A DNA stretch of 64,000 nucleotides from Pseudolabrys sp. (GCA_035315965.1 DATFXJ010000062.1:5007-69006), one strand, 5' to 3'; shown: positions 9,564 through 27,300, counted from the stretch's first letter. The notes: a model not told the origin generated them from the sequence alone. Program-made: numbers and translations.

Positions 9564-9579
9564 TTTGCGGTGTGTCTCT

Positions 9580-10467
9580 TTATTTGTGCGCGTTATTCTG
9601 CGCGGCCAGATACCAGTCGAGGATTTTTGCGCCATCCCAGGTTACGACGCCGTCATGCGAAAGGATCTCCGCAAATGTCCGCTCCACATGGCCGATGCGA
9701 TGAGGCACGCCAGAGAGATAGGGGTGGCAGGCCATCGCCATAATTTTCGGCCGCTCGGCCGATTCCTTATAGAGCGTCATAAAGTGGTCTAGCGCACGGG
9801 CGTGCCATTCGTTTGAGGGAAGGTGTTGCAGCGCCATCATGACGATGTCGTGGATTTCGAAATTGTAAGGCAGCGCCACAACCGGTTTGTGAGCGGTCTC
9901 CAGCGTCACCGGCTCATCGTCGAGCACCCAGTCACCGATATATTCGACACCCGCTTCCGAAAGATAGTCGAGCGTATCGAAGGTCTGGGTCAGCCCCGGA
10001 CCAAACCAGCCGCGCGGACGATTGCCGGAGAATTTCTCGATTACGTCCATGGACTTCATGATGACGGCGCGCTGGTTGTCGAGTTTGTGCATCGGGATTT
10101 GGTCGTAACCGTGCGCGTTGAGCTCCCAGCCGCTGTCGAGACACGCTTGGACGACCAGCGGATATGTTTCGCAGACTTTGGCATTAAGCGTTACCGTCGG
10201 AGTGATCCCGAGCTTGAGCATCATCTTGCGCAGCCGCCAGAATCCGACGCGCATGCCGTATTCATGCCAACTCCAGTTCGGATGGTCCGGTAGCATCGGC
10301 TGCCCTTGCGGCGGCGAAATGACCATGCGCGCCATTGGCCGCGCCATGTCCCACTCCTCAAGCGCCAGCACCGGCCAGATCACCAGCCGCACACCTTTCG
10401 GCAATTTGAGCGGCGGCCGGCCGTCGATCGGCGAATAGGCTAGTCGTTCACGCGGATGCATGGGCAT
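9580..10467 (-). CDS. CE4/polysaccharide deacetylase fold, PuuE-like hydrolase (paralog 1)
   Basis: RLAYSPIDGRPPLKLP, LEEWD, WHEYGMRVGFWR, AHGYDQ, DDEP and HPY motifs. Confidence 0.85.
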   Translation of the reverse strand: MPMHPRERLAYSPIDGRPPLKLPKGVRLVIWPVLALEEWDMARPMARMVISPPQGQPMLPDHPNWSWHEYGMRVGFWRLRKMMLKLGITPTVTLNAKVCETYPLVVQACLDSGWELNAHGYDQIPMHKLDNQRAVIMKSMDVIEKFSGNRPRGWFGPGLTQTFDTLDYLSEAGVEYIGDWVLDDEPVTLETAHKPVVALPYNFEIHDIVMMALQHLPSNEWHARALDHFMTLYKESAERPKIMAMACHPYLSGVPHRIGHVERTFAEILSHDGVVTWDGAKILDWYLAAQNNAHK

Positions 10468-10472
10468 AAGGG

Positions 10473-11378
10473 CTACGCCGATTTCGGCCCGACCTTTGTA
10501 TACCAGTCGGCGATCCGCGATCCGGTCCAGAACAGCACGTCGCGCTTTTTGCGGATCTTCTCGTAGATCTTACGGAAATATTTCGTTCGGTGCGGCGCGC
10601 CCATGATGTAAGGGTGCACTGAAATCGCCATCACCCGCGCCGAGCCCTTAGCATCCTTGTAGATCTGCTCGAACTGGTCCATCGCCCGCTCATAGAACTC
10701 CGACGCCTTGTGATGCTGAATCAGCATCATGGCGACGTCGTTGCATTCTTGCGTATAGGGAATGTTGAGGATCGACTTGGTGCGCGTCTTCATCCATACG
10801 GGCTGGTCGTCGAGCACCCAGTCGGCCACATAGTCGTAGCCTTCTTCCGCCAGGATATCGGGCGTTTCCCAGGTTTCAGTCAGGCCGGGTCCGAGCCAGC
10901 CGCGCGGACGCTTTCCCGTCGCTTTTTCCAGCACCTCAGCGCTCCTGCGGATATCCACACGCTCGTTTTCGACCTTTTGCATGTTTCGCTGGGTGTATCC
11001 ATGGCCGATGAATTCCCAGTTGCGCTCGATGCAAGCCTTCACGATGTCCGGATAGGTCTGCACCGCGACACCGTTGACGTTCATCACGCCAGGAATCTTG
11101 AAGTCGTCGTAAACCTGTAGCAGCCGCCAGAAGCCAACGCGGTTGCCGTATTCGTGCCAGCACCAATTCGGAATGTCAGGCATCGGCGAGCCGCCGGCGG
11201 GCGGGGTGAGCACCGTCCGCGGCATAGTCTGCGTCGGGTCCCATTCCTCGACATTGGTGATGGTCCACACCACCATGCGCGCGCCGTTCGGCAACTTCAG
11301 CGGCTTGCGTGTGGTGATCGCGGAATAATCGAGACGGTCGTTTGGCAGCATGCCGACAGCGGGCTTGGGGAAATTCAT
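10473..11378 (-). CDS. CE4/polysaccharide deacetylase fold, PuuE-like hydrolase (paralog 2)
   Basis: RLDYSAITTRKPLKLP, NVEEWD, WHEYGNRVGFWR, GHGYTQ, DDQP and HPY motifs. Confidence 0.85.
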   Translation of the reverse strand: MNFPKPAVGMLPNDRLDYSAITTRKPLKLPNGARMVVWTITNVEEWDPTQTMPRTVLTPPAGGSPMPDIPNWCWHEYGNRVGFWRLLQVYDDFKIPGVMNVNGVAVQTYPDIVKACIERNWEFIGHGYTQRNMQKVENERVDIRRSAEVLEKATGKRPRGWLGPGLTETWETPDILAEEGYDYVADWVLDDQPVWMKTRTKSILNIPYTQECNDVAMMLIQHHKASEFYERAMDQFEQIYKDAKGSARVMAISVHPYIMGAPHRTKYFRKIYEKIRKKRDVLFWTGSRIADWYTKVGPKSA

Positions 11379-11444
11379 GCGCGGGCGTTCCTCGGGATAT
11401 GATTGGCTGGCAGTTTTACAGTTAGCCCGGGTATTGTACAGGCC

Positions 11445-12287
11445 ATGAAGCTTGTTCGTTATCGCTCTGCGGTTGGTGAAAAGCCCGGTCTGATTCTAGA
11501 TGGCGAAGTGTTCGACCTGTCGGGTAGCTTTGCCGCCCTCAACCCGCGCGCACCGACGTTTGCCGACATCGAGGCGATCGCGGCTGTACCTGCGAAAGCA
11601 CTGTCGAAAGCGGAGAAGGGCGTCGTGCTGGGCCCGCCTTTGCGCGGCATCGGCAAAATCATTGGCGTTGGCCTGAACTATCGCGATCATGCGGAGGAAA
11701 CCGGCCTACCTTTGCCGAAGGAGCCGACGCTATTTCTAAAAGCCACCAGCGCGCTTTGCGGGCCGACCGACGATCTCGTCGTGCCGCACGGGGCAAAGAG
11801 CGTCGACTGGGAGATCGAGCTCGGCGTGGTGATCGGCAAGCCCGGCGTCTATATCGCGGAGCGGGACGCGCTCGACCATGTGCTTGGTTATTGCGTCGGC
11901 ATCGATTTTTCCGAGCGTGACTTCCAATTCAATCGTGGCGGGCAGGGCTTCAAGGGCAAGAGCGCCGATACTTTCGCGCCGCTCGGTCCGTTCCTGGCGA
12001 CACGCGACGAGATCGCGGATCCACAGAAACTGGCACTGCGCCTCGCAGTCAACGGCGTCGGCAAGCAGAACGGCAATACGCGCGAGATGATTTTTTCGGT
12101 TGCCGAGCTTGTTTCCTACATCAGCCGCTTCATGAGTCTTCAGCCGGGCGACGTGATCCTCACCGGCACGCCTGCGGGCGTCGGCCTCGGCCACAAGCCG
12201 CCGGTTTATCTTAAGGCCGGCGATGTGGTGACGGCCTCGATCGAAGGCCTCGGCGAGCAGAGCCATAAAGTGGTGACTGGCGGATAG
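11445..12287 (+). CDS. Fumarylacetoacetate hydrolase family protein
   Basis: GVGLNYRDH, DWEIELG, DFSERD, KSADTF and GDVILTGTPAGVG motifs. Start at ATG 11445. Confidence 0.9.
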   Translation: MKLVRYRSAVGEKPGLILDGEVFDLSGSFAALNPRAPTFADIEAIAAVPAKALSKAEKGVVLGPPLRGIGKIIGVGLNYRDHAEETGLPLPKEPTLFLKATSALCGPTDDLVVPHGAKSVDWEIELGVVIGKPGVYIAERDALDHVLGYCVGIDFSERDFQFNRGGQGFKGKSADTFAPLGPFLATRDEIADPQKLALRLAVNGVGKQNGNTREMIFSVAELVSYISRFMSLQPGDVILTGTPAGVGLGHKPPVYLKAGDVVTASIEGLGEQSHKVVTGG

Positions 12288-12322
12288 GTGACAGCAGCGC
12301 GGCCATACGTTGGATGACGGCC

Positions 12323-13324
12323 TCAGCTCCCCTTCTCGTCGTGGATCTCTGGGAAGAAGTAATCTTTCCACGACGCGGGCTTGGCCTTGAGGGTGCCGAC
12401 CACCGCCATGAAGTCCGCATATTTCATGGTGTTTTCGGGGGTCAGAGTCCAGCGCACCTGCGGGCCGGCGACAATCTTGCCGACCATGTCGATCGACAGT
12501 TTCGATTTCGAATCCTCGATCCACAGAGCAGCCGCGGCCGTCTTGTCCTTATTGACGATATCGGTCGCTTCCTTCAGTGCCGCCACCAGCGCCTTGTAAA
12601 GAACCGGATTGCCGTCGCGGAATTTCGCCGGAGCCCAGACGGCGGTGAATGTATGCGAGCCGCTCATCACGTCGAAGGAATTGAGCACGGTGTGAACGGC
12701 GGGATCCTCGAGCTGCTGATACTGAAACGGCGGCACGCTGAATGCGGCACTGATCTGAGCGCCGCCCTTGAGCAACGCGACTGTGGCATCCGGCGGCGTC
12801 ATCGAAACCGTCAGCGGATCGAATCTCGCAAATTGTTTCGTGCCATACTCCTTCGCCGCCGCCATTTGCAGCGTGATCGCCTGCACCGAGGATCGCACAG
12901 CGGGCACGGCGATGCGGTCGCTTTCCTTGAAGTCCTTGATGGTCTTGATGGCGGGATCGCGACTGTTGAGCAAGAATGGCTGCGAGCTCAGCGCAGAAAT
13001 TCCGCGCACCTCCTGCGGAGTGCCTTTGCTGCGCGCCCAAAGCATGAGCAGTCCAGGCACACCGCCCGAACCGACATCAATATTGCCGGAAATCAGCGCT
13101 TCGTTGACCGCGGTTGGCCCGTTGAAGGTGAACCATGAAACTTTCACATCGTCGAGGCCGAGCGCTTTTGAATGCTTCTCAATGAGCTGTTGGTGCTCCA
13201 TCACGTTGAGCTGCAGGTAGCCCATGGAAAATTGCCGCGCGAGACGGATTTCCTCAGCCGGTGCAGACGCCTCCGCAAACAGCGCGAACGCTCCAATGAG
13301 GCTCGCGAATGCCTTGATACGCAT
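12323..13324 (-). CDS. ABC substrate-binding protein, SsuA/NMT1-like
   Basis: Sec-type signal peptide, FNGPTAVNEALISGNIDV and IAVPAVRSS motifs typical of class II binding proteins. Confidence 0.82.
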   Translation of the reverse strand: MRIKAFASLIGAFALFAEASAPAEEIRLARQFSMGYLQLNVMEHQQLIEKHSKALGLDDVKVSWFTFNGPTAVNEALISGNIDVGSGGVPGLLMLWARSKGTPQEVRGISALSSQPFLLNSRDPAIKTIKDFKESDRIAVPAVRSSVQAITLQMAAAKEYGTKQFARFDPLTVSMTPPDATVALLKGGAQISAAFSVPPFQYQQLEDPAVHTVLNSFDVMSGSHTFTAVWAPAKFRDGNPVLYKALVAALKEATDIVNKDKTAAAALWIEDSKSKLSIDMVGKIVAGPQVRWTLTPENTMKYADFMAVVGTLKAKPASWKDYFFPEIHDEKGS

Positions 13325-13375
13325 TTGAGTCTTCCCAAGACCGCCGATCTTGCTCTTATGGGCGGCGGCGCAACG

Positions 13376-14272
13376 CTATGCGGCAGCTTCGATCTTGGCA
13401 ATGCTGCGGTACCAGTCGAAGATCTGCTCGCCGTTCCAGTGCAGCACGCCTTCATGCTTGTTCACGTGATCGTAGATCTGCTCGAGATATTTGATCCGGT
13501 GCGGCTGCCCGCTAATGTAGGGATGGATCGCCAGCGCGCAGAATTTGGCGCGGGTCGTGCTCTCGCCATAAAGCCGGTCGAACTGGTCGATGGTGCGATT
13601 TAGCAGATAGTCGCTCTCGTGATGTTGGATTAGCATCATCGGAATGTCGTTTAGCTCGATGCTGTAGGGCAGGGTGACGAGCGGCCCCTTAGCGGTGCGG
13701 ATCACCGTCGGCTCATCGTCATAGACCCAGTCACCGATATATTTCACGCCCGCTGCCGCGAGCAATTCCGGCGTGTCCAGCGTTTGTGTCAGGCCCGGCC
13801 CGAGCCAGCCAACCGGCTTCTTGCCGGTGAATTTGGTCAGAATGTCCATGGTCCGCTTGATCATGACGGCCTGGTCGGTTTCCTTGTGAATCGGACCCTG
13901 CTCATAGGCGTGGGCCATAAACTCCCAGCCGGCATCGCGCGCCGCCTTTGCCACGCGCGGATAGTCCCCGCAGATACGCGCATTGGCGGCAAGCGTCGGC
14001 TTGATGCCGAGGCGTTTGAACAAATCGAAGAAACGCCAGCAGCCGACCCGCATGCCGTATTCGTGGAAGGCCCAATGCACGACGTCGGGCATGAGCTGAA
14101 CTCCCGTTGGGGCCGGGAGCAATTGCCGCGCCATCGGCTTGCCGATGTCCCAGACCTCGAAATTGACAGTGGTCCAGAATACAATGCGGGCATTGCCCGG
14201 CAATTTGAGCGGCGGGCGGTCGACGATCGCCGAGTAGTCGGCACGTTCGCGCGGAATCATCGGGCTGGACAT
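13376..14272 (-). CDS. CE4/polysaccharide deacetylase fold, PuuE-like hydrolase (paralog 3)
   Basis: RADYSAIVDRPPLKLP, NFEVWD, FHEYGMRVGCWR, AHAYEQ, DDEP and HPY motifs. Confidence 0.85.
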   Translation of the reverse strand: MSSPMIPRERADYSAIVDRPPLKLPGNARIVFWTTVNFEVWDIGKPMARQLLPAPTGVQLMPDVVHWAFHEYGMRVGCWRFFDLFKRLGIKPTLAANARICGDYPRVAKAARDAGWEFMAHAYEQGPIHKETDQAVMIKRTMDILTKFTGKKPVGWLGPGLTQTLDTPELLAAAGVKYIGDWVYDDEPTVIRTAKGPLVTLPYSIELNDIPMMLIQHHESDYLLNRTIDQFDRLYGESTTRAKFCALAIHPYISGQPHRIKYLEQIYDHVNKHEGVLHWNGEQIFDWYRSIAKIEAAA

Positions 14273-14330: not shown

Positions 14331-15050
14331 TCACGCCGTCGCGGCCACGCGCAACCCGACCAGCCGTTCGAGCGTGGCGCTATCTCTCAACAACTGCGCA
14401 GAAGTTGCGCGGTGCGCCACAGCGCCACGCTCCAACACGATAGCTTCAGCCGTCAGTTCGAGCGCGAAGTCCGTGTGCTGCTCGACAAGGATAATGGCGA
14501 TGCGGCGGTCGGAGAGCATCGTCTTCATCGCGGCAATGAGCTCGTCGACGATTACAGGCGCGAGACCCTCGAATGGCTCATCGAATAGCATCAGTGTCGG
14601 ATTGGTCATCAGTGCGCGCGCGATTGCGAGCATTTGCTGCTCGCCGCCGGAGAGCTGGTTACCCATGTTGCGGCGGCGCTCGGCGAGGCGCGGAAAAAGT
14701 CTGAAAACCGCGTCAAGATCCCAGGAGCCTGGCTGCGCCGCGACCGTGAGATTCTCCTCGACCGACAGCGAGGGAAAGATTTCCCGCTCCTGGGCGACCC
14801 AGCCGATACCTTTGGTCGCGCGGCGGTTCGGAGGCATGCGCGAAATATCCTGACCGTGCCAAGTCACCTGACCACTGCGCAATTGTGTGTAGCCCATGAT
14901 GGTCATCAGCAATGTCGACTTACCGACGCCATTGCGGCCGAGCACTGCCAGGCTGCTGTTCTCTGGCAAGTCGAGCGAAATACCGTGCAGCACGACGGCG
15001 TCGCCATAACCGGCAGTAACGTTGTTGACCTTGAGCAAGGAGTCAGCCAT
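14331..15050 (-). CDS. Branched-chain-type ABC transporter ATPase (LivF-like)
   Basis: Walker A GRNGVGKS, LSGGEQQ signature and Walker B LMLFDEP. Start at ATG 15050. Confidence 0.9.
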   Translation of the reverse strand: MADSLLKVNNVTAGYGDAVVLHGISLDLPENSSLAVLGRNGVGKSTLLMTIMGYTQLRSGQVTWHGQDISRMPPNRRATKGIGWVAQEREIFPSLSVEENLTVAAQPGSWDLDAVFRLFPRLAERRRNMGNQLSGGEQQMLAIARALMTNPTLMLFDEPFEGLAPVIVDELIAAMKTMLSDRRIAIILVEQHTDFALELTAEAIVLERGAVAHRATSAQLLRDSATLERLVGLRVAATA

Positions 15051-15837
15051 GTTTGCGCTTGCCCAGATAGACTTCCCGCACGCCCGGGTCGGCAGCGATC
15101 TCGGCCGGCGAACCTTCCGTAAAGATCGCACCGCCGACCAGCACGATGATGTGGCTTGCGAAGCGAAACACAACGTGCATGTCGTGCTCAATAAACAATA
15201 AGGTGAGATCGTCCGACAGGCTCGCCACAGCCTCGAAGACTTCGCCGCTTTCTTCCTGCGGGACTCCGGCCGCCGGTTCGTCGAGCAGTAGAACTTTCGG
15301 CCCGGTTGCGAGCGCTAGCGCGATTTCCAGCAACCGTTGACGGCCGTAAGGCAATTCGCGCGTAACCTGGTAGCAGGACTCGCCTAGCCGCAATTTGCGT
15401 AGTATCTCGTAAGCCTCGTCGATGGCTTCGCCATGCGAGCCAAGGCCGCGCCAGAACTGCCCGGCGAGCCCGCGCCGTTCGGCCACTGCCAAGGTCACCG
15501 CCTCCAGCGCGTTGAGACCGGCGAACAGTGTGTTGATCTGGAATGTGCGCGCGAGCCCACGCCGCACCCGCTCCTGCGGACCAAGTTCGGTGATGTCCTT
15601 GCCGCCGAGCATAATTTGTCCGGCGTTGGGCGCCAGCATGCCAGTCATCAGGTTGATGAGCGTCGTCTTGCCCGCGCCGTTCGGCCCGATCAGCGCGTAG
15701 CGCGCGCCGACCGGTAGATTGATCTCGATGTTGCGTGCCACCGGCAGCGAACCGAACGCTTTTGACAGGCCGCGGGTAGCTAAAGCGATTGTGCGACTAG
15801 CGATCGCGTTCTCAGCTGGAGGCGTGGGTGTGCTCAT
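15043..15837 (-). CDS. Branched-chain-type ABC transporter ATPase (LivG-like)
   Basis: GPNGAGKT, LPYGRQR, LLDEPAAG and IEHDM motifs. Start at ATG 15837. Confidence 0.9.
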   Translation of the reverse strand: MSTPTPPAENAIASRTIALATRGLSKAFGSLPVARNIEINLPVGARYALIGPNGAGKTTLINLMTGMLAPNAGQIMLGGKDITELGPQERVRRGLARTFQINTLFAGLNALEAVTLAVAERRGLAGQFWRGLGSHGEAIDEAYEILRKLRLGESCYQVTRELPYGRQRLLEIALALATGPKVLLLDEPAAGVPQEESGEVFEAVASLSDDLTLLFIEHDMHVVFRFASHIIVLVGGAIFTEGSPAEIAADPGVREVYLGKRKHG

Positions 15838-16823
15838 TTGCGTCTCCACCGCGCATAGAATTCCGATAGGCCGCCGAGAATGCCGTTGGGGAGCACCATG
15901 ACAACCGTCACCAGGAGCATGCCCATCCAGAAATACCAATATTGCGGGGCGATGCCGGAGAACTGATCACGCGCGATCATGAAAATCGTCGCGCCGACCA
16001 ATCCACCATAAAGCCGCCCGGCACCACCCAGCACCAGCATCACAAGCACGTCAGCTGATCGCTGGAAACTGATCGATTCAAGCGAGACGTTTTCAGTCGT
16101 CTGCGCCAGCAGCGCTCCGGCAAGTCCCGCAATCGTTGCAGCGATGGTGTAAGCCTTGCGGATATGCGCGCGGCTGTCGGCGCCGATCGCCGGCATTCGT
16201 ATCCAGTTCTCCCGGATGCCACGCAGCGCCAGACCAAACGGGGAGTTGATCAGCCGGCGCACGCCCAGGAAAATGACGAACAATGCAGCCAGCGAATAGA
16301 TGTAGGCGACGTAGCCATAGAGATCGAACTTGAACAAACCGAGCACCGGCCACATCGAAATGCCTTGCAATCCGTCGCTGCCGCCGGTGAGCCAATGTGC
16401 GCGGTTTGCCGCCTCGAACGCGAGCAGACCAAGGCCGAGCGTGATCATGATGAGCGTAAAATGTCGGAAGCGCGAAATGACAAAACTGACAGCAAAACCG
16501 ACAAGTCCGGCCGCAACCGACGCCAGCACGAGACCGGTCAGTGGTTCGCCCCAGCCAAATTTGGAGATCAGTCCAGCGGAGTAAGCGCCGATGCCGAAGA
16601 AGGCCGCGTGGCCGAGCGAAACAATACCGGCATAGCCGAGGATGAGGTCAAGAGAGAGCGCGAACAGCGCGGTGATAGCAATCTGGCTTGTAAGCGACAA
16701 ATAGTTCGGGAACAGGAAGAACGGCAGCAGCGTCGAAAGCCAGAACGCAATCTCGAGCGGATGCCAGCGGCTCTGTGCCTGTAGATAGGCCTGCGGTGCC
16801 AACGCTGCGACTGCGGGCGGCAT
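15834..16823 (-). CDS. Branched-chain-type ABC permease (LivM-like)
   Basis: GYAGIVSLGHAAFFGIGAY, SPFGLALRGIREN and VMLVLGG motifs. Confidence 0.9.
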   Translation of the reverse strand: MPPAVAALAPQAYLQAQSRWHPLEIAFWLSTLLPFFLFPNYLSLTSQIAITALFALSLDLILGYAGIVSLGHAAFFGIGAYSAGLISKFGWGEPLTGLVLASVAAGLVGFAVSFVISRFRHFTLIMITLGLGLLAFEAANRAHWLTGGSDGLQGISMWPVLGLFKFDLYGYVAYIYSLAALFVIFLGVRRLINSPFGLALRGIRENWIRMPAIGADSRAHIRKAYTIAATIAGLAGALLAQTTENVSLESISFQRSADVLVMLVLGGAGRLYGGLVGATIFMIARDQFSGIAPQYWYFWMGMLLVTVVMVLPNGILGGLSEFYARWRRK

Positions 16824-16826
16824 GGT

Positions 16827-17690
16827 CTAGCGCCTCCCGAACAAGCCGGCTGGGCGCCACATGAGCACCACGACCATGACCAGATAAATCAGAAAGGCGC
16901 CAAGCTCAGGCGCGTAATATTTGCCGGCGACGTCGCTGACACCGATCAGAATTGCGGCGGCAAACGAGCCGGCAATGGAGCCGAGGCCGCCGACCGAAAC
17001 GATGATCAGCACATAGACCAAGTACGTGAAGGCGAAATTTGGATCGAGGCCGACGACCTCGATCGCGAGGGCGCCGCCGAGGCCCGCAAGACCGGATCCG
17101 AGAGCGAAGGTCGAGGCGAAGGTGCGATCGACATCGATGCCGAGCCCGCGCGCCATGCGCTGATTGTCAACCGCCGCGCGAACCTGCGCGCCGAAGCGCG
17201 TGTATTCCAGGCCTGCGACCAGCAGCATCGTGACTACCAATGCGATGCCGATCAGGAACAACCGGTACTTTCCAAGCCCGAGGCCGAGGAAATCGACCAC
17301 GCCGCGCAGTCCACTAGGCGTTTCGACCGGCTGCTGGGTCGTGCCGAAGATATAGGCGGCGATGGCGACGGAAATGAATGCAAGCCCGATGGTGAGCAGC
17401 ACCTGATCGAGGTCGCTGGCACGGTAGAGCCGTCTGTAAAGCACGCGTTCAAGAACGACACTCGCGATTGCCGCGGCCGCGAACGCCGGCGGCAGCGTCG
17501 CGAGGAACGGCCAATGAAGTTCGTTCACCAGCGTAATGGTAACGTAGCCGCCGAGCATTGCGAAAGCGCAATGGGCTAGGTTGACGAAGTTCATCAACCC
17601 GAGCGTCACCGACAACCCAACCGACAGCACGAACAGCAACATGCCGTAGGCGATGCCATCAAACAGGACACCAAAGACTGGGGAAAGCAT
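16827..17690 (-). CDS. Branched-chain-type ABC permease (LivH-like)
   Basis: GLSVTLGLMNFVNLAH, TRFGAQVRA and VSVGGLGS motifs. Confidence 0.9.
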   Translation of the reverse strand: MLSPVFGVLFDGIAYGMLLFVLSVGLSVTLGLMNFVNLAHCAFAMLGGYVTITLVNELHWPFLATLPPAFAAAAIASVVLERVLYRRLYRASDLDQVLLTIGLAFISVAIAAYIFGTTQQPVETPSGLRGVVDFLGLGLGKYRLFLIGIALVVTMLLVAGLEYTRFGAQVRAAVDNQRMARGLGIDVDRTFASTFALGSGLAGLGGALAIEVVGLDPNFAFTYLVYVLIIVSVGGLGSIAGSFAAAILIGVSDVAGKYYAPELGAFLIYLVMVVVLMWRPAGLFGRR

Positions 17691-17958: not shown

Positions 17959-19128
17959 CTACTTGTGCGTCGGGTCTTTCACATTCGGCACAGTGTCGAA
18001 CTCGACATTGACGATATCGTTGCCAACTTTCTCCACCCTGCGGACATATACGTTCTGCACGATGTCGCGGGTCTCCGGATCGATGGAGATTGGCCCGCGC
18101 GGGCTTTCCCATTTCATGCCTTTGGCCGCGGCGATCAAGGCATCGCCATCGGTCTTGCCGCCGGTCTTCTTGAGCGCCTCGTAGATGAGATGCATGCCGT
18201 CATAGCCGCCGACCGCGAAGAAATCCGGATTGCGCTTAAATTCCGCGTTGAAGGCTTTCACGAAATCGGCATTCATCTTTGACTTGTGATTGTAATCGTA
18301 GTGCCAGGCACTGAGGCGGCCCAAAGCAAGATCGCCCAGACTTTTGATCGCAGTTTCGTCAACCGGCTCGCCGGTGCTCAGGATCTTGATCTTGTTGGGG
18401 TCGACTTGACGCTCGGCAAAGGCCTTGCCAATCGCGGCCGGCTGCGCGCCGCCCGGCACAAATAGGAAAATCGATTCCGGATTGAGATCCTTCGCACGCT
18501 GTACGAAGGCCGAGAAGTCCGGGTTGGCGATCGGCATGCGCACCGAACCCACAATCTCGCCGCCCGCTGCCTTAAATGCTTTCTGGAACGCGGTTTCGGC
18601 ATCGATGCCGGGACCGAAGTCGGTCACCATGGTATAGGCTTTCTTGATCTTGCCCTTGGTGGCCGCCCAGGTACCGAGCGTTTCGCCGATCTGCGGCAGC
18701 GTCAGTGACACGCGCACGATGTAGGGCGACTTCTCGGTAATGACCGACGTCGCGGCGTTCATGTCGACCATGAATTTCTTGGCTTCGGCTGAAATGCCCG
18801 AGGCGCCGAGCGCTTCCGGCGTGAGCGTAAAGCCGGCCAGCATGTCGGCCTTGTCACGCACGATCAATTCCTGCGCCAGGCGCTTGGCGACATCCGGGTT
18901 CGGGCCGCCGCTGTCTTTGCGGATGATCTCGATCTTCTTGCCGGCGACGGTGTCGCCGTGTTGCTTCATATAGAGCTTGATGCCGTTGTCGATCTGCGCG
19001 GTGGTGTCGGCGAACTGTCCGGAATAGGCAGAAATAACGCCGATCTTGATGGTTTCTTGGGCGCTAGCGCCTACCGGCAGCATGGCCGCCGCGAGGATGG
19101 CGGCGCCGGCGAATAACACGCGTTTCAT
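17959..19128 (-). CDS. Branched-chain-type ABC substrate-binding protein (LivK-like, PBP1)
   Basis: Signal peptide, IKIGVISAYSG, GKKIEIIRKDS and WESPRG motifs. Resembles the subfamily that binds aromatic acids (recalled, not tested). Confidence 0.88.
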   Translation of the reverse strand: MKRVLFAGAAILAAAMLPVGASAQETIKIGVISAYSGQFADTTAQIDNGIKLYMKQHGDTVAGKKIEIIRKDSGGPNPDVAKRLAQELIVRDKADMLAGFTLTPEALGASGISAEAKKFMVDMNAATSVITEKSPYIVRVSLTLPQIGETLGTWAATKGKIKKAYTMVTDFGPGIDAETAFQKAFKAAGGEIVGSVRMPIANPDFSAFVQRAKDLNPESIFLFVPGGAQPAAIGKAFAERQVDPNKIKILSTGEPVDETAIKSLGDLALGRLSAWHYDYNHKSKMNADFVKAFNAEFKRNPDFFAVGGYDGMHLIYEALKKTGGKTDGDALIAAAKGMKWESPRGPISIDPETRDIVQNVYVRRVEKVGNDIVNVEFDTVPNVKDPTHK

Positions 19129-19389: not shown

Positions 19390-20262
19390 TCACGCCAGCG
19401 ACAGCGTTGCCCGCTCGTATTGGGCGCTGCCCATTTTCCCTTCCGGGAAAATGCGGTGGGCAGCAATCCACTCGAAGGATTCCTCGTAGATTTCCTTGGT
19501 ATAGGGCTCGAACACCAGCCTTTCTCCAGGACCCCAGCGCCGCGTGTCCATTTTGGCGTGGAAGCGGTCGGGGAATTCCTTCTTGTAATAATGAGTATAG
19601 AGTTCGGGCCGCAGGTCGATGTCACGCTGGGCCTTGCGGAGTGCGCGGAAGAACTTGCGCAGGTCTTCAGGATCGGGATCGCCATGGATCATGGTGCCGA
19701 TCATGAAGGTGGCGTCGATCACCTTGCGGAACCCAAGCTGTTCGGCGAAGTAATAGGGCCCCCCAAAGAGGTGCACGGCCGGCGCCTTGCCCTCGAACAG
19801 CCGCTCCATGCGCGCAAACAGCATGCCGTCGGAATAGACGAGGTTCATCTCCTCCGGCTTCAGGTACTGTTCGAGTGCCTGCACCGTCGAATAATGACTA
19901 CCGGATTGATAGCCGACCGAAACCGGCACGCCAGCCAGATCGGTCGGATCTTTTATCTTCGAATCGCCGGCGACAAAGATACCAGCGGGCGCCACCGAAT
20001 AGACGTCGGTGTACATCTTGCCGTGCCCGTTGGACGCAGCGACGTTGACGGTCCAGTGGCAGGCGCAGCTGACGTTCGATTTGCGACCTTCCTCGAATGA
20101 CTGGTAGGCGCCAACTTTGTCGCCTTTGTCGTGAATCTTGCCGCCGGTCGAGCGCATTAGCTCGCGGAATTCGTATTCAAGGCCTTCCTTGCGGAAGTAG
20201 TCCTTCTCCTCGGCCACCCATTCCTGCAGTCGGAAATGCGGTTCGATCAGGAATTTCGCCAT
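19390..20262 (-). CDS. Class II binding-protein-fold protein (NMT1/SsuA-like) lacking a signal peptide
   Basis: WVAEEKDYFRKEGLEYE and DLAGVPVSVGYQSGSH patterns. An in-frame TAA 18 nt upstream of the ATG excludes an N-terminal extension; AAGGGAG RBS. Confidence 0.75.
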   Translation of the reverse strand: MAKFLIEPHFRLQEWVAEEKDYFRKEGLEYEFRELMRSTGGKIHDKGDKVGAYQSFEEGRKSNVSCACHWTVNVAASNGHGKMYTDVYSVAPAGIFVAGDSKIKDPTDLAGVPVSVGYQSGSHYSTVQALEQYLKPEEMNLVYSDGMLFARMERLFEGKAPAVHLFGGPYYFAEQLGFRKVIDATFMIGTMIHGDPDPEDLRKFFRALRKAQRDIDLRPELYTHYYKKEFPDRFHAKMDTRRWGPGERLVFEPYTKEIYEESFEWIAAHRIFPEGKMGSAQYERATLSLA

Positions 20263-20284
20263 GGTTTTGTTCTCCCTTTAGTTT

Positions 20285-21058
20285 CTAGCAGCATGATTGT
20301 CCTTGGTGCCCGCGTTCGGCCACGCGCCGGGCGCGGATCATCTTGACGTGGTCGTCCATCAGCGCGCGCGCAGCGGCTGCATCACGCATCTCAATCAGGT
20401 CGGTAAGCTGGGTGTGAATGTCCAGGATGTGCCGCGCGAGCTTAGGCGTTGCGGTAACGTTGCGGCGGGGCCAGGAGACGTGCTCAAGCGAGATGAGCTG
20501 CACGACCAGCACTCGGTTGTGCGAAGCTTCGGCGACGGCAAGGTGAAAGTCGCGCGATAGGCGCGTGAACAGGTCGAGGTCGCCGATCACGCCTTCAGCG
20601 TCGCGCAACAGTTGGCGCAATCTGGCGATATCGGTGGCGGTCGCATTCTCGGCCGCGAGTTCTGCGCCAAGGGTCTCGATCGCGCGCTGCGCGTCCATGA
20701 TCTCGGCGGTGGACACGCCGGTAAGGTCGAGCTGGACGGCTAGCGCCTCGGCGAAGAGGCGCGGATTGCCCTGCGCGATACGCGCCCCGCCACCCTTGCC
20801 CATGCGGATTTCGACGATGCCAAGTGCTTCCAGTGTGCGCAATGCATCGCGCGCGACGATCCGGCTGGCGCTGAAGCGTGCCGCGAGGTCCTTCTCGGTG
20901 CCGAGAAAATCACCGGGTTTAAGTTTCTTGGCGAAGAGGGCGTCGCGCACCCAGGTGACGATCTGCGCCGACAGCGAGGCGGAACGGCCAGCAAGCATAA
21001 TTCGGGCGGTGAGGTCACCGTTCATCGTCACCGGCTGCCGCAGTGCCATTCGTGACAT
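20285..21058 (-). CDS. GntR/FadR family transcriptional regulator (FCD domain)
   Basis: wHTH LKPGDFLGTEKDLAARFSASRIVARDAL and FCD motifs DFHLAVAEASHN and DIHTQLTDLI. Confidence 0.92.
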   Translation of the reverse strand: MSRMALRQPVTMNGDLTARIMLAGRSASLSAQIVTWVRDALFAKKLKPGDFLGTEKDLAARFSASRIVARDALRTLEALGIVEIRMGKGGGARIAQGNPRLFAEALAVQLDLTGVSTAEIMDAQRAIETLGAELAAENATATDIARLRQLLRDAEGVIGDLDLFTRLSRDFHLAVAEASHNRVLVVQLISLEHVSWPRRNVTATPKLARHILDIHTQLTDLIEMRDAAAARALMDDHVKMIRARRVAERGHQGQSCC

Positions 21059-21107: not shown

Positions 21108-21129
21108 TAAAGATATCATCTTATCTTTA
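21108..21129. promoter_or_regulatory. Palindromic operator candidate TAAAGATA-N6-TATCTTTA
   Basis: Perfect 8-bp inverted repeat 50-71 nt upstream of the GntR start, adjacent to a minus-strand TACTAT -10-like hexamer. Confidence 0.6.
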
Positions 21130-21657: not shown

Positions 21658-21917
21658 TTTCGGCCCCTTAGGTCCCACAGTAGCATAGTTTTTGCGTTAG
21701 TGGATGTGCCGCTCGTTTCGAAGCCAGTCACCCATAGCTGATTGGCCAACAAAGTCCGCAGAATGCTCGACAACCCTGAAGCGTCAAGGGGGCCATAATC
21801 GGCCGGCCCCGCTTACGAAATAAGCACGCAAAAACCGCTTTGAGTTGGAGCTGCAGACATTTATTGCTCATTCAGCCGCAATCAATCACTTTAATAGTTA
21901 ATAATTGGCCAGCACTC

Positions 21918-23495
21918 ATGCTTTGGAAAAGCCAGCCAATCGCTTCGAAACCGAGACCTGTGAGATCCCGCTCGCTTGATTTTTCCGTTTCGCAGGTTTT
22001 GGTACTATTTGTGGCGTTGATATTGCTGATATCGATTCCGATTTGGACACACCCGCTGCCACCGCTTTCAGATTACGTAAATCACCTCGCGCGTATGCAG
22101 GTGATCGCAGAGTTGTCCCGCGATCATCCGATTGCGAAGTTCTATGAATTGCATTGGCAGGTGATCCCAAATTTGGCGATGGACATTGTCGTGCCGCCGC
22201 TGGCACGGATCATGAATGTTTATCTCGCCGGCCAAGTTTTTCTCGTGTTGATGTTCGTGGTCATTATTTCTGGGATTCTTGTACTGAATCGGGCACTGGT
22301 CGGCCGATTTTCCGTACTGCCTTTATTCGCGATCCCTCTGCTCTACAACTTTGTATTCCTCGTTGGACTAATGAATTACATATTCGGAATCGGCATCGCG
22401 ATATGGGCGTTGGCTGGCTGGTTTGCTGTTCGGGAACGCACATGGCCGATACGGTTTGTACTATCCTCGTTTTTTATTGTGGTCCTCTTTTTTTGCCATC
22501 TCTCAGCACTTGGCATTTACGGGATTGGTTTGCTTTCCGCTGAGCTTTTGCGGCTATGGGAGCGTCGGACGGAGCCTTGGCCTCGCAGGATCGCCGAATT
22601 TTTCCTTAGCGGTATGCCGTTTCTCATCGTCGTGCCACTGCTGTACACCAGTCCGACAATGCAACTTGTCGTCGCCACGTCGTGGGAACAGCGCGGCAAA
22701 CTGGATGGATTGATATATGTAATCGCCAATTACACCGATATTACCGCTTTTGCATTGGTTACAATCTTGGCTGCTTGCGCAGTCTGGGCATTCCGCCACC
22801 GTGTCCTGAAATTTCATCCGCTTGCTTTGGCGCTGCTTATTGTCGGCGGCGTCATTTATTTTGCAATGCCACGCGTCATGTTCGACACCTATATGGCCGA
22901 TCAGCGGGTGCCGCTCGGTATTGCTTTCATTCTTTTCGCATGTGGCGATTTGGACGCGCGGCGCCGCCTTGTAAGACGAGGGTTTTTGATTGTCCTTATC
23001 GTTTTGATCGCTGGTCGGCTCCTAGAGATTGACTACAACTGGTCGCAATTGTCGGATTCAACCAGCGAGTTTCGCTCATCCGTGCGCCGTATTGCGCCGG
23101 GTTCAAAAGTTTTTGTGGCATATGCAAGCGCCGCGTCCGGCGAAGACGTGCGCGACCTTGGCCTTGTCCATGCCGCTTGCATCGCCACAATTGAGCGTTC
23201 CGCGCTGGTTACGACCTTATTCAGCGTGGACGGCAAGCAGGTAATACATGTTCGACCTGAATATCGCGACTACGCCGACATCCACGATGGAACTCCACCT
23301 TCGGCCGCGCAACTCATTCTTGCAGCAGATCGTCCATTGCCGAACATGCCGGCTTTCTGGCTCAATTGGACAAAATTTGACTATATCTACATTCTCTTCA
23401 CGGAAGACGACGCGCCCAATCCGGATCCATCACGTCTGCGCCTCGTAACCGATGGCGATCGTTTTCAACTTTATCGCATAGTGAAGACAGATTAA
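21918..23495 (+). CDS. Polytopic membrane protein, possible GT-C-fold glycosyltransferase
   Basis: Many TM segments, PPLSDYVNHLAR acidic motif after TM1 and a soluble C-terminal domain. Start set at ATG 21918. Confidence 0.65.
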   Translation: MLWKSQPIASKPRPVRSRSLDFSVSQVLVLFVALILLISIPIWTHPLPPLSDYVNHLARMQVIAELSRDHPIAKFYELHWQVIPNLAMDIVVPPLARIMNVYLAGQVFLVLMFVVIISGILVLNRALVGRFSVLPLFAIPLLYNFVFLVGLMNYIFGIGIAIWALAGWFAVRERTWPIRFVLSSFFIVVLFFCHLSALGIYGIGLLSAELLRLWERRTEPWPRRIAEFFLSGMPFLIVVPLLYTSPTMQLVVATSWEQRGKLDGLIYVIANYTDITAFALVTILAACAVWAFRHRVLKFHPLALALLIVGGVIYFAMPRVMFDTYMADQRVPLGIAFILFACGDLDARRRLVRRGFLIVLIVLIAGRLLEIDYNWSQLSDSTSEFRSSVRRIAPGSKVFVAYASAASGEDVRDLGLVHAACIATIERSALVTTLFSVDGKQVIHVRPEYRDYADIHDGTPPSAAQLILAADRPLPNMPAFWLNWTKFDYIYILFTEDDAPNPDPSRLRLVTDGDRFQLYRIVKTD

Positions 23496-23593: not shown

Positions 23594-24772
23594 TCACGCT
23601 ACTTTCTTGCCCCAAAGTCTTGCCGAGGCAATGTCGGCGCCCTGACGGATCGCGGCAAGCTTCAGCCAGACCACGGGCTCGATCACCCATTCGCGCTTGG
23701 TGAAAGTACCGAAGCCGCAGTCGGTCGAAGCGATCACACGCTCGCGTTCACCGACCGCGCGTACCGCCTCCTCGATACGGCGCGCCACCACCTCCGGATG
23801 CTCGACGAAGTTGCTGGTGGTTTCCACCACGCCCGGGATCAGCAGCATGTCTTTCGGCAGTGGATATTTCTTTAGCGTGTCGTATTCGTGCGCGTGACGC
23901 GGGTTCGAGAACTCAATCGACAGCGCACCGACCTTGGCTTGGTAGAGCGCCGGCAGGATTTTCTCCAGCGCTATGTCGTGAATGTGCGGGCCCTCCCAGT
24001 TGCCGTAACAAATGTGCAGCCGCACGCGATCGCGCGGGATCCCTGCAATGCCATCATTGATCGCCTGTACGTGCCGCTCGACGCGTTTGACGAAGCCGAT
24101 ATCATCGAGGTCGCGATACATCATGGTGCGATCCATGGCGAGATCGGGCGCATCGATTTGCAACAACAGTCCGGCTTTATGGATAATCTGATATTCGTTT
24201 TTCATCTCGCGCGCGATCGCATCGAGATAATCGTCATGTGTCTGGTAGAACGCGTTGAGCATGGTGGTCGAAATGATGCCAGGTGAGGGCGCGGTCATGA
24301 ACCGCTCCGAAAAGGCCCCGAGCTCGTCGGCGATCTTGTTGAAGCCCGTGGTCTCCTCATTAATCGGCTTGAGATCCTTGTATTTGATGTCGGCCTGGGC
24401 CTCCGGCGCGCCTTGCTGGCTCTTAGCCGGGTTCGGGAAGCGCCGCATCAGATAGGCCAGCAGTTCGGGGAATTCCTCGAATTCACGTCCGCGCCGACGC
24501 TTCGACACGCCCCCAAAGCCAGTCATGCGCTGCGGCACATAGGTCTGAAAGCTGATGCGGCGCTGCTCGCCGTCATTGCCGATATCGATGCCGGCTTTCA
24601 ACTGCCTATCGACGACATGGCGCACCGCCTTATCCATTTCCGCAATCAGCACCTTCATGTCATAGGGCTTGCCTTCTTCCTGCGCCATCAATAGGTCCGA
24701 CAGTTTTTCGTTGCGCGGCAAGCTCCCGACATGAGTGGTGAGAATGCGGTCCCGGCTGAAGATCATACGCAT
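23594..24772 (-). CDS. Cobalamin-independent methionine synthase II family (single-barrel MetE-like Zn enzyme)
   Basis: TTHVGSLPR, NDGE, LQIDAPD and Zn ligands HICYGN and STDCGF. Confidence 0.85.
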   Translation of the reverse strand: MRMIFSRDRILTTHVGSLPRNEKLSDLLMAQEEGKPYDMKVLIAEMDKAVRHVVDRQLKAGIDIGNDGEQRRISFQTYVPQRMTGFGGVSKRRRGREFEEFPELLAYLMRRFPNPAKSQQGAPEAQADIKYKDLKPINEETTGFNKIADELGAFSERFMTAPSPGIISTTMLNAFYQTHDDYLDAIAREMKNEYQIIHKAGLLLQIDAPDLAMDRTMMYRDLDDIGFVKRVERHVQAINDGIAGIPRDRVRLHICYGNWEGPHIHDIALEKILPALYQAKVGALSIEFSNPRHAHEYDTLKKYPLPKDMLLIPGVVETTSNFVEHPEVVARRIEEAVRAVGERERVIASTDCGFGTFTKREWVIEPVVWLKLAAIRQGADIASARLWGKKVA

Positions 24773-24844
24773 GGCTCCTGTTCGGCGGACATTGCGGCGT
24801 TTCGTTCGCCCTTGCATAATACGAATGTCTCGGGAGGAACAACA

Positions 24845-26443
24845 ATGACGGTCGTGGAAGCGCGCGCGGCAAAATCGGTCACGCCCGAATCCATGGGCGC
24901 TGTCCCACGCGACTACAATTTTGCCGCCGATGTTCTAGAAAGTAATCTTGCCGCCGGACGTGCCAACAAATCGGCCTATATCGACGCGCGCGGCACACAT
25001 ACCTATGGCGAACTTGCCGACCGCGTGGCGCGTTTTGGTTCCGTGTTACGTGGGCTTGGAATTAAGCGCGAAGAGCGCGTGCTGCTGGCGCTGCTTGATA
25101 CCATCGATTGGCCTACTGCGTTTCTCGGCTGTTTGAAAGCAGGCTTCATCGCGGTGCCTGTAAACACGCTGCTCACAGAGGACGACTATCGCTTCATGTT
25201 GGCCGATAGTCGCGCGAAATGCTTGGTGGTCTCGGAGGCGCTGTTTCCGAAATTCGAGAAGCTCATCAAGCAAAGCCCAGATCTCGAGCACGTCATCGTG
25301 TCGGGCACCAGTCCGCACGGCTATCGTCTGTTCGAGGATGTGATCGGGTCCAACGACCCGGAATCTTATACGGCGCCGACCACCTGTGACGATATCGCAT
25401 TCTGGCTGTACACGTCGGGATCAACCGGAAAGCCGAAAGGCGCGGTACACGTCCATGCAAGTCTCAAGCTCACTGCCGATCTTTATGGCACGCCTGGCGT
25501 GGGCCTGAAGGAAAGCGACATGTGCTATTCGGTCGCGAAATTGTTTTTCGCCTACGGCCTCGGCAATGCCATGACCTTTCCAATGACCGTCGGTGCGACC
25601 ACTATACTTAACGCTGAAAGACCGACACCGGATGGCGTTGCGGCGTTATTGCGGAAACATCCGATCACAGTGTTTTTCGCTGTACCGACTTTTTATGCCG
25701 CGTTCCTAGCTAATCCGAACGCGCCGCAGAAATCGGAAGTGAAAATCCGCCGCTGCATTTCTGCCGGCGAGGCGTTGCCCGAAGAAATCGCGCGCAAGTG
25801 GAAGGATCGTTATGGCGTCGAAATTTCAGACGGGCTAGGCACGACGGAGATGCTTCACATCTATCTCACCAACGCGCCGGGCGCGACCAAATACGGCACG
25901 ACTGGGAAGCCGGTGCCGGGTTATGAGATCAAACTGATCGGTGATGACGGTCAGCCAGTGAGGAAAGGCGAAATGGGCGAACTTTATGTACGCGGGCCGA
26001 CCAGCGCAATCATGTACTGGAACAATCGCGACAAATCGCGCTCCACTTTCCAGGGCGAATGGACGCGCTCAGGCGACAAATATATCGAGGATGTCGAAGG
26101 CTATTACGTATGCTGTGGGCGGCAGGACGACATGCTGAAAGTATCGGGTATGTATGTCTCGCCGTTCGAGGTCGAGGCAGCGCTGTCATCGCATCCCGAC
26201 GTGCTAGAGGCGGCGGTGGTGGGCTGGCACGACGAGCAAAAATTGATCAAGCCGAAGGCCTTTGTGGTGCTCAAATCGCCGGACAGGGCCAGCGATGCCC
26301 TAGTCCAGGCGTTGCAGGAACACGTCAAAGCAAAGCTCGCGCCGTACAAATATCCGCGCTGGATCGAATTCCGCAAAGACTTGCCGAAAACCGCGACGGG
26401 CAAAATTCAGCGGTTCAAATTGAGGGCAGAGGGTAAACAGTAA
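24845..26443 (+). CDS. Benzoate-CoA ligase family aryl-CoA ligase
   Basis: YNFAADVL, YTSGSTGKPKG (A3), FAYGLGN, CISAGEAL, DGLGTTEMLHI and PKTATGKIQR (A10). Start ATG 24845 with GGAGG RBS. Confidence 0.9.
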   Translation: MTVVEARAAKSVTPESMGAVPRDYNFAADVLESNLAAGRANKSAYIDARGTHTYGELADRVARFGSVLRGLGIKREERVLLALLDTIDWPTAFLGCLKAGFIAVPVNTLLTEDDYRFMLADSRAKCLVVSEALFPKFEKLIKQSPDLEHVIVSGTSPHGYRLFEDVIGSNDPESYTAPTTCDDIAFWLYTSGSTGKPKGAVHVHASLKLTADLYGTPGVGLKESDMCYSVAKLFFAYGLGNAMTFPMTVGATTILNAERPTPDGVAALLRKHPITVFFAVPTFYAAFLANPNAPQKSEVKIRRCISAGEALPEEIARKWKDRYGVEISDGLGTTEMLHIYLTNAPGATKYGTTGKPVPGYEIKLIGDDGQPVRKGEMGELYVRGPTSAIMYWNNRDKSRSTFQGEWTRSGDKYIEDVEGYYVCCGRQDDMLKVSGMYVSPFEVEAALSSHPDVLEAAVVGWHDEQKLIKPKAFVVLKSPDRASDALVQALQEHVKAKLAPYKYPRWIEFRKDLPKTATGKIQRFKLRAEGKQ

Positions 26444-26490
26444 CTGTCATCAGCGGGGCCGCCGCGAAGCCGCGTGAAGCTGAAATTCTA

Positions 26491-27300
26491 ATGACAAATC
26501 TTTCCGATTTCGGCTTTCTCATCATTGGCCCGCAACGTCTCGAGTACCGCTTCGTCGGCCCGCAGCCCGACAAAGCGCCGACGCTCGTTTTGCTGCATGA
26601 GGGTCTCGGTTGCGTCGGTTTGTGGGGCGATTTTCCGGACGAGCTTTCGGCTGCCACCGGCGCCGGCGTATTCGTTTATTCGCGCGCCGGTTATGGCCAA
26701 TCCAGCACCGTGACACTGCCGCGGCCGCTCTCATTTATGCACGATGAAGCGCGCGAGACGCTGCCCCGCTTGCTCGACGCCATTGGTTTTCAACGCGGCC
26801 TGCTGGTTGGTCATAGTGACGGCGCTTCGATTGCGGTGATCTATGCCGGCAGTCGTCAGGATCACCGCGTTAGCGGTCTCGTGCTGATCGCGCCGCATTT
26901 CTTTACCGAGGATTCGGGCATAGCCTCGATCGTCGAGGCGCAAAAAAACTACGAGACTAGCGACCTGCGTGCACGTCTTTCGCGTTGGCACGACGACGTC
27001 GACAATGCGTTCAGAGGCTGGAACGGGGCGTGGCTCGATCCAGAATTCCGCAAGTGGGATATCACGGAATTCCTTGCCTATATCCGGGTGCCGGTGTTGA
27101 TCGTGCAGGGCAACGATGACCAGTATGGCACGGTGAAGCAGATCGAGGTCGCACAGGAAGAATGCTACTGCCCGGTCGAGGTCACGCTATTGCCGAGCGC
27201 GCGCCATTCGCCGCAGCGGGAAGCACCTGAGGCGACGCTCAAGGCGATTTCGGAATTTGTAATTCGTGTGCTGCAGGCGAATGAAACGAGTGTGGCGTAA
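26491..27300 (+). CDS. Alpha/beta hydrolase of the type often found beside benzoate-CoA ligases
   Basis: LLHEGLG oxyanion region, GHSDG nucleophile elbow, DQYG acid and HSP His motifs. Confidence 0.88.
   Translation: MTNLSDFGFLIIGPQRLEYRFVGPQPDKAPTLVLLHEGLGCVGLWGDFPDELSAATGAGVFVYSRAGYGQSSTVTLPRPLSFMHDEARETLPRLLDAIGFQRGLLVGHSDGASIAVIYAGSRQDHRVSGLVLIAPHFFTEDSGIASIVEAQKNYETSDLRARLSRWHDDVDNAFRGWNGAWLDPEFRKWDITEFLAYIRVPVLIVQGNDDQYGTVKQIEVAQEECYCPVEVTLLPSARHSPQREAPEATLKAISEFVIRVLQANETSVA

Follow-up and report, generated by a model that had tools for sequence, protein, structure and literature searches.

Several cytoplasmic enzymes share the two-lobed fold of solute-binding proteins. DszB, the 2'-hydroxybiphenyl-2-sulfinate desulfinase, is cofactor-free, has a key catalytic cysteine and acts on an aromatic acid-like anion. 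4,5-Dihydroxyphthalate decarboxylase (Pht5/OphC/PhtD), a cofactor-free decarboxylase of aromatic acids, has the same fold and no leader, and works in aromatic catabolism. In THI5/NMT1, the HMP-P synthase, Lys62 is the Schiff-base lysine, and the enzyme needs iron. A binding-protein fold without a leader can also serve in sensing: AmiC is the amide sensor of the Pseudomonas aeruginosa amidase operon, encoded beside AmiR and acting through it. THI5 and MqnA/MqnD are further cases of a binding-protein fold recruited for catalysis (PMC9672406). Here we analyse a gene of this fold class (the target) on a stretch of 64,000 nucleotides (nt) from Pseudolabrys sp. (GCA_035315965.1, DATFXJ010000062.1:5007-69006), the whole of which is called the window below. 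The gene, its 5' spacer and the two motifs on which the argument turns are, in window coordinates:

19390..20262, minus strand: the target gene (open reading frame), encoding a 290-residue leaderless protein of the SsuA/TauA/THI5 fold, subfamily a of a large uncharacterised family
20263..20284, minus strand: 22-nt spacer between the upstream GntR-family regulator gene and the target, with a GGGAGA ribosome-binding site and an in-frame TAA (sequence)
20053..20073, minus strand: VSCACHW (residues 64-70), where strand beta3 ends and helix alpha3 starts (alignment and model secondary structure)
19894..19905, minus strand: Ser120-Gly121-Ser122-His123, the N-terminus of a domain II helix (HMMER, and HHalign to TauA)

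The evidence supports placing the target in a genuinely leaderless, cytoplasmic family with a class II binding-protein fold. As to what the protein does, the balance tips slightly towards a cofactor-free, cysteine-dependent enzyme that acts on an imported aromatic or N-heteroaromatic carboxylate.

A preliminary description of the window, made from the sequence alone, had placed the target 22 nt downstream of the GntR gene, with an in-frame stop 18 nt upstream of its start, and both points hold. The GntR stop codon is at 20285-20287, the target ATG at 20262-20260 and the in-frame TAA at 20280-20278. Since this TAA lies 18 nt 5' of the ATG and the spacer carries the GGGAGA site, the start is well defined and no extension is possible. 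In a codon comparison with 71 orthologues, the median ratio of nonsynonymous to synonymous rates (dN/dS) was 0.12, with synonymous sites near-saturated. The target is a real gene under strong purifying selection.

The same description had seen neither a signal peptide nor a transmembrane segment in the target, and hydropathy agrees. Expressed as a Kyte-Doolittle mean over a 19-residue window, the highest value anywhere in the protein is 0.79, and that of the N-terminal region is -0.22, compared with 2.0 and 1.5 for the N-terminal regions of the two genuine periplasmic binding proteins encoded in the same cluster. Moreover, a hydrophobic leader before the conserved Pro8 occurs in none of 379 aligned homologues, most of which have 7-11 residues ahead of this proline; full-length family members comprise 288-303 residues. 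Because no homologue has such a hydrophobic N-terminal stretch, the target cannot be regarded as a truncated copy of an exported protein, an objection that the preliminary description had raised against itself.

The fold assignment rests on several comparisons. The target's one Pfam match is NMT1/THI5-like (PF09084), at 26.8 bits against a cut-off of 20.5, covering residues 16-164, and many homologues also carry a precomputed PF09084 match. An AlphaFold2 model built from a 34-sequence alignment of four subfamilies reached a pLDDT of 87.8 and a pTM of 0.87; residues 39-60, a variable loop between beta2 and beta3, are its only uncertain part. Foldseek searches of the PDB with this model returned SsuA, TauA, ThiY (pyrimidine-binding), DszB, THI5 and PqqT at 10-17% identity, with template-modelling (TM) scores of 0.55-0.67 for the first five, and no solved structure closer than these six. 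The NMT1/SsuA-like pattern read from the sequence is thus confirmed by an above-threshold PF09084 match and by SsuA among the top structural matches, and both DszB and THI5, which the preliminary description had named for structural comparison, are among the matches. By sequence profile, HHalign aligned residues 88-238 to E. coli TauA with a probability of 92.6%, and TauA is the only significant relative at this level. A PDB search with the single target sequence gave no match, and a PDB profile search with the family gave only TauA, SsuA and THI5, all weak. NCBIfam has no model for the family, only TauA and SsuA models matching below threshold.

The family is large. Homologues form at least 8000 clusters at 90% identity, all those scored being significant, and 1305 representative clusters at 50% identity (E<=0.001). 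Besides subfamily a, we distinguish subfamilies b (about 301 residues, 44-47% identical to the target), c (33-35%; Thaumarchaeota and others) and d (about 296 residues, 28-31%). Conservation was counted in 356 sampled members of the four subfamilies, spanning 28-89% identity. Cys68 (nt 20059-20061), Trp70, Ser122, Glu131, Arg151 and Gly246-Glu247 are present in all 356, His123 and Pro8 in 355 each and Asp239 in 350. VSCACHW is indeed found at residues 64-70, and its Cys66 and Cys68 are the target's only two cysteines. The conservation anticipated for C-A-C-H as a unit held in part: Cys68, together with Trp70, is universal, whereas only subfamilies a and b retain Cys66 and His69 without exception (239/239), these two positions being occupied in c and d mostly by Gly/Ala and by Val/Ala/Asn. 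The family-wide signature is A-C-x-W, and C-x-C-H is just a subfamily feature. Even homologues encoded on Mesorhizobium and Natrinema plasmids, 26-28% identical to the target, retain Cys-x-Trp; the window's exported SsuA-like protein (12323-13324) has Gly-Ser-Gly-Gly in its place. We define a leaderless Cys-x-Trp superfamily by the lack of a leader, A-C-x-W after beta3, a Gly-Ser-His helix end, Arg151 and Gly-Glu before the last strand. All of these features are found in the target and in 355-356 of the 356 sampled members.

In the target model, a strand (residues 64-68) and a helix (69-77) of lobe I meet at the motif, Cys68 ending beta3 and His69-Trp70 beginning alpha3, while Ser120-His123 open helix 121-130 of lobe II. 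Both HMMER and HHalign align Ser120-Gly-Ser-His123 with Ser131-Thr132-Thr133-His134 of TauA. Crystallography of TauA shows Gln30 and the backbone NH groups of Gly61, Gly79 and Thr132 holding the sulfonate, with Thr132 also touching the amine of taurine (PMC6906117). A manual, ungapped register of helix alpha3 (xVAAS in both proteins) would make Cys68 the equivalent of TauA Gly79, although the target's N-terminal lobe was left unaligned to TauA by HHalign. In HHalign against THI5, Lys62 falls within one residue of Cys68 (Ala67/Cys68), at a probability of only 17% and hence with low confidence; the THI5 query agrees with the THI5 segments in the output of the profile search. Topology and alignments together suggest that the invariant residues line the interlobe cleft, where relatives contact their ligand or catalyse. 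The earlier idea of a Cys/His group near the ligand cleft is supported for the invariant cysteine, which would occupy a ligand or catalytic position of relatives; His69 is not universal.

The neighbourhood of the target includes the following features:

20285..21058, minus strand: GntR-family regulator with an FCD effector domain, directly upstream of the target and co-oriented (Pfam GntR and FCD)
17959..19128, minus strand: Peripla_BP_6 binding protein with a signal peptide, benzoate-derivative type, 261 nt downstream of the target (PDB match, Foldseek)
14331..17690, minus strand: two permeases and two ATPases of a branched-chain-amino-acid-type ATP-binding cassette (ABC) importer (Pfam BPD_transp_2 twice, ABC_tran twice)
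24731..26443, plus strand: benzoate-CoA ligase family gene, 3.7 kb from the GntR gene (TIGR02262, 769 bits against a cut-off of 375)

Along the minus strand the genes run GntR(FCD), target, Peripla_BP_6, two permeases, two ATPases, a PuuE-like CE4 hydrolase and an exported SsuA-like protein, followed by an FAH-family gene on the opposite strand, two more PuuE-like hydrolases, an amidase and pyrE. The downstream binding protein (model pLDDT 90.8) matches PDB entries 4EY3, 4EYG and 4EYK with E=1e-125. By Foldseek it shows 55-56% identity and TM scores of 0.87-0.93 to the Rhodopseudomonas palustris BisB5 structures 4EY3 and 4EYG, and 43-44% identity to RPA0985 (4-hydroxybenzoate complex) and RPB_2270. 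According to its entry title, 4EY3 is a complex with p-hydroxybenzoic acid (4-hydroxybenzoate); the ligand of 4EYG is presumably vanillate. Since the binding protein matches structures of the 4EY3 type, the importer is of the benzoate-derivative type and not a branched-chain amino-acid system. The benzoate-CoA ligase family gene suggests an aromatic-acid theme for the neighbourhood, its functional link to the target being putative.

Relations between the target and its neighbours were scored in 80 related loci, with the loci that could be scored as denominators. A GntR orthologue lies directly 5' of the target in 40 of 75 loci and is missing in 35; the binding-protein orthologue lies directly 3' in 32 of 73, and a PuuE-like orthologue within 9 kb in 20 of 53. 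There are 15 loci with GntR and no importer and 8 with the binding protein and no GntR, so the two associations of the target are partly independent. In four divergent lineages (L053, L059, L060, L062) only target and binding protein are adjacent, the rest of the cluster being missing, and in most Bradyrhizobium and Bryobacteraceae loci the target gene stands alone. Many family members have no transporter nearby. The other subfamilies have nitroreductase-family and FAD-oxidase (DAO) genes, TctC, RraA-like and luciferase-like genes, or xanthine-dehydrogenase-family molybdoenzymes as neighbours.

Individual loci offer further observations. In four loci with the GntR-target pair and no importer (L016, L024, L034, L042), the next gene reads as a molybdopterin subunit of about 780 residues from the xanthine-dehydrogenase family, whose enzymes typically hydroxylate N-heteroaromatic rings. 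At L040 9189-17434 (chromosome OY970184.1 of a metagenome-assembled genome of 7.2 Mb), the GntR gene and those of subfamilies a and d lie side by side, and a subfamily b gene, then an MFS transporter gene, follows 5.7 kb further, giving three leaderless paralogues within about 8 kb. At L090 2798-5529, from a Thaumarchaeota metagenome-assembled genome, the archaeal member P0390 (33% identical to the target) lies between RraA-like and luciferase-like monooxygenase genes, downstream of an oligopeptide-type ABC system. A plasmid of Natrinema salinisoli (L087 7962-10827) has three genes annotated 'ABC transporter substrate-binding protein' in tandem and no permease gene with them; only the first encodes Cys-x-Trp, and the other two look like ordinary SsuA-type genes.

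Within the window, three paralogous PuuE-like CE4 'polysaccharide deacetylase' genes and the amidase gene come after the importer (9580-14272 and 8367-9635, both minus strand). The PuuE-like genes score 103-137 bits with TIGR03212, far under its 425-bit allantoinase cut-off, and the amidase scores 454 bits with NF006169. The exported SsuA-like protein (12323-13324, minus strand) has a clear signal peptide and a below-cut-off TIGR01728 score of 70.9 bits, and is an orphan, with no NitT/TauT permease or ATPase gene nearby. On the other side of the target, an AT-rich stretch 50 nt 5' of the GntR start contains a perfect 8-bp inverted repeat (21108-21129; TAAAGATA-N6-TATCTTTA); it is not conserved among the 80 related loci, and we do not claim it as a GntR operator. 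A 551-residue open reading frame that looks like a multi-pass membrane protein (21840-23495, plus strand; no NCBIfam match) separates the GntR gene from a MetE-like gene. The benzoate-CoA ligase family gene diverges from this MetE-like gene, and an alpha/beta hydrolase gene comes next; this segment (23594-27300) is an aromatic-acid activation module near the GntR-target pair. An initial reading of the cluster as N-heterocycle or pyrimidine catabolism, suggested by the PuuE-like hydrolases, the amidase and the phosphoribosyltransferase, was dropped as a lead because this last enzyme, encoded at the far end of the cluster, is a typical PyrE (354 bits, cut-off 245) and the binding protein matches 4-hydroxybenzoate binders. 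The pyrE gene may be a mere neighbour of the cluster; N-heteroaromatic acids are still among the possible substrates of the target.

An enzyme superfamily fits these findings better than a set of sensors or transport parts because the fold is leaderless, a lone cysteine is invariant together with His, Glu, Asp and Arg residues, and no cognate permease accompanies the gene. That members stand alone in many unrelated contexts is what would be expected of diversified enzymes. An aromatic or heteroaromatic carboxylate is proposed as the substrate because a hydroxybenzoate-type importer adjoins the target. The protein would have kept the two-lobed SsuA/TauA binding fold, lost export and gained a cofactor-independent activity. 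The importer would bring in the aromatic or N-heteroaromatic carboxylate, the Ser-Gly-Ser-His helix end and Arg151 would anchor its carboxylate, and the lobes would close over it. Cys68, as the catalytic thiol, would then hand a proton to the ring carbon bearing the leaving group, with release of CO2 (or SO2), and GntR might regulate the pair in response to this acid or to what is made from it. The specific chemistry, in which a substituted ring carbon is protonated and CO2 leaves (SO2 if the substrate is a sulfinate), is a tentative proposal by analogy with DszB and 4,5-dihydroxyphthalate decarboxylase, more doubtful than the enzyme assignment itself. Equally speculative is the idea that in the target and its paralogous subfamilies the sulfonate-binding-protein fold has given rise to a new class of decarboxylases or lyases for aromatic acids, enzymes that depend on a cysteine and need no cofactor. 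Another option is a hydrolase of the Cys-His-Glu type whose reaction would precede those of the CE4 hydrolases and the amidase, or an isomerase. Taken together, the preliminary interpretation as a new enzyme or a sensor partnered with the regulator keeps its leaderless class II fold, its invariant cysteine and, in 40 of 75 loci, its GntR pairing, and loses C-x-C-H as a unit.

Several observations weigh against the enzyme assignment or its details. Cys68, placed after beta3, does not seem to occupy the position of the DszB catalytic residue Cys27, which follows strand beta1 and gives the proton in desulfination; after beta1 the target has Pro8-His9. Cys68 would face the cleft, and its likely distances to His123 and Glu247 are likewise deduced from topology and alignments; moreover, a rigid catalytic triad would sit uneasily with the location of Cys68 and His123 on separate lobes. 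The PuuE-like hydrolases and the amidase suggest amide chemistry, which a decarboxylase does not explain. At 70-80% identity the binding protein is kept in 11 of 36 loci and GntR in 9 of 35, and because importer synteny is strongest among close relatives, in Pseudolabrys-like genomes, shared ancestry could be part of its cause. With a 261-nt gap before the binding-protein gene, co-transcription of the two genes is only putative; neither an intrinsic terminator nor a clear promoter was found between them. Finally, no relevant paper on a characterised family member or on a comparable gene cluster came up in literature searches.

The strongest competing explanation, one to which we would give a little less than one chance in five, is that the target is a cytoplasmic ligand sensor or co-regulator, which would take up the imported acid as ligand and act on the neighbouring GntR by protein-protein contact, as AmiC does with AmiR. 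GntR is the most frequent neighbour, the genes are 22 nt apart in the window, and in 15 loci the pair persists without the importer. The 71-75% identity between alphaproteobacterial and Bryobacteraceae proteins could reflect a protein-protein interface, and a precedent exists in AmiC, one of the structural matches that Foldseek gave for the class I binding protein encoded next door. However, the 35 of 75 loci that lack an adjoining GntR include those of Bradyrhizobium and all but one of the scorable Bryobacteraceae loci, and GntR is already equipped with an effector pocket in its FCD domain. In addition, the invariant Cys/His/Glu/Arg/Asp set extends to subfamilies without a regulator partner, while a sensor pocket should vary with its ligand. 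The partnership with the regulator proposed earlier draws support from the loci where GntR adjoins the target and is weakened by the rest and by the same invariant residues in unrelated contexts.

An improbable alternative is a non-catalytic holding protein that captures imported aromatic acids in the cytoplasm and either buffers their toxicity or hands them to a CoA ligase. The retained binding fold with its anion-binding helix end would suit such a role, as would adjacency to the importer's binding-protein gene in divergent lineages and the benzoate-CoA ligase family gene nearby. Yet binding would require neither a lone cysteine nor acid/base residues that stay invariant from one subfamily to the next, and many members have no transporter nearby. 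We give even less credence to a metal-binding protein in which C-x-C-H forms a structural or catalytic Zn/Fe site, comparable to the need of THI5 for iron. Such a site would account for the strict retention of Cys66, Cys68 and His69 in subfamilies a and b and for the invariance of His123. It is nevertheless unlikely because only the second cysteine, with Trp70, is universal: in c and d the other two residues are replaced while the remaining invariant residues persist. Besides, neighbouring residues such as 68 and 69 rarely co-ligate one metal, and the target, with its two cysteines, has no CCCFC-like motif. A decayed or mis-called transporter binding protein, that is, a truncated SsuA/TauA gene that lost its leader, as might be supposed from public annotation of relatives as 'ABC transporter substrate-binding protein', is refuted by the upstream stop and good ribosome-binding site, the 379 leaderless homologues, the dN/dS of 0.12, the absence of an adjoining NitT/TauT permease and a TIGR01729 score of 16.6 bits against a cut-off of 304.

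The source genome (3.0 Mb) carries one copy of the target gene, and the family is present in 6 of 201 genomes sampled evenly across the order. This patchy occurrence, together with 71-75% identical orthologues in Bradyrhizobium, Stellaceae and the acidobacterial Bryobacteraceae, suggests an accessory, horizontally mobile gene. A plasmid search returned only homologues of 25-34% identity in mixed contexts, and a phage search returned no homologues. Soil Alphaproteobacteria and Acidobacteria are rich in this family, and thousands of its genes are publicly labelled 'ABC transporter substrate-binding protein', a label that is almost certainly wrong and that skews transporter counts in soil genomes and metagenomes. 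Should the enzyme assignment be right, the family would be a further catalytic lineage beside DszB, THI5, MqnA/MqnD and Pht5, with Cys-x-Trp and Gly-Ser-His as its own signature. If the more speculative decarboxylase or lyase chemistry also applied, soil bacteria and some Thaumarchaeota would have a means of removing carboxyl or sulfinyl groups independently of prenylated flavin and metals, from hydroxybenzoate-type or N-heteroaromatic acids, on a route directly coupled to a GntR switch and to a high-affinity importer of its own. Through the uptake of lignin-type aromatic acids, such a reaction could matter for the turnover of lignin-derived carbon, and it could be of use in the biocatalytic (de)carboxylation of aromatics. 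The question is directly testable because a cultured carrier exists, Pseudolabrys sp. Root1462, whose protein is 86% identical to the target.

How, then, does the target compare with the described systems? SsuA and TauA are its best structural matches (3ksx, TM 0.67; 6ssy) at 11-16% identity, and share with it the anion-holding helix end Ser-x-x-His. They differ in having a signal peptide or lipobox, and the target falls far below their curated cut-offs (TIGR01728 and TIGR01729). SsuA and TauA genes adjoin a NitT/TauT permease and ATPase, whereas the importer next to the target is of the BPD_transp_2 type and has its own Peripla_BP_6 protein.

Among the enzymes, DszB is likewise cytoplasmic and has the same fold (2de3, TM 0.62), but its sequence match to the target is insignificant (E=2.2), it is about 75 residues longer (365 residues), and its defining set is Cys27 after beta1 with His60 and Arg70. 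THI5, also cytoplasmic, has in common with the target PF09084, the fold (4h6d) and an active-site residue, Lys62, at the end of beta3. However, HHalign and the sequence itself show none of Lys62, His66 and the CCCFC motif in the target, which thus lacks the defining residues of THI5, one of the precedents named by the preliminary description; moreover, THI5 belongs to thiamin metabolism and the target to a context of aromatic-acid catabolism. The closest functional parallel to the proposed reaction is Pht5, whose N-terminal motifs presumably differ from the target's MAKFxIEPHFRLQEW; no Pht5 model was among the NCBIfam matches of the target. Thaumarchaeal genes annotated as Pht5 have been discussed (PMC10773090), and the target superfamily also has thaumarchaeal members.

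As for sensors, AmiC has a class I (LivJ-like) fold, an antiterminator as partner and no invariant cysteine signature, whereas the target has a class II fold and a GntR neighbour; the adjacency that an AmiC-like pairing with the regulator would call for is seen in 40 of the 75 scored loci and not in the other 35. The target is thus probably a case of a known kind, a binding-protein fold recruited as a cytoplasmic enzyme, and what is new is the signature of Cys-x-Trp with Gly-Ser-His.

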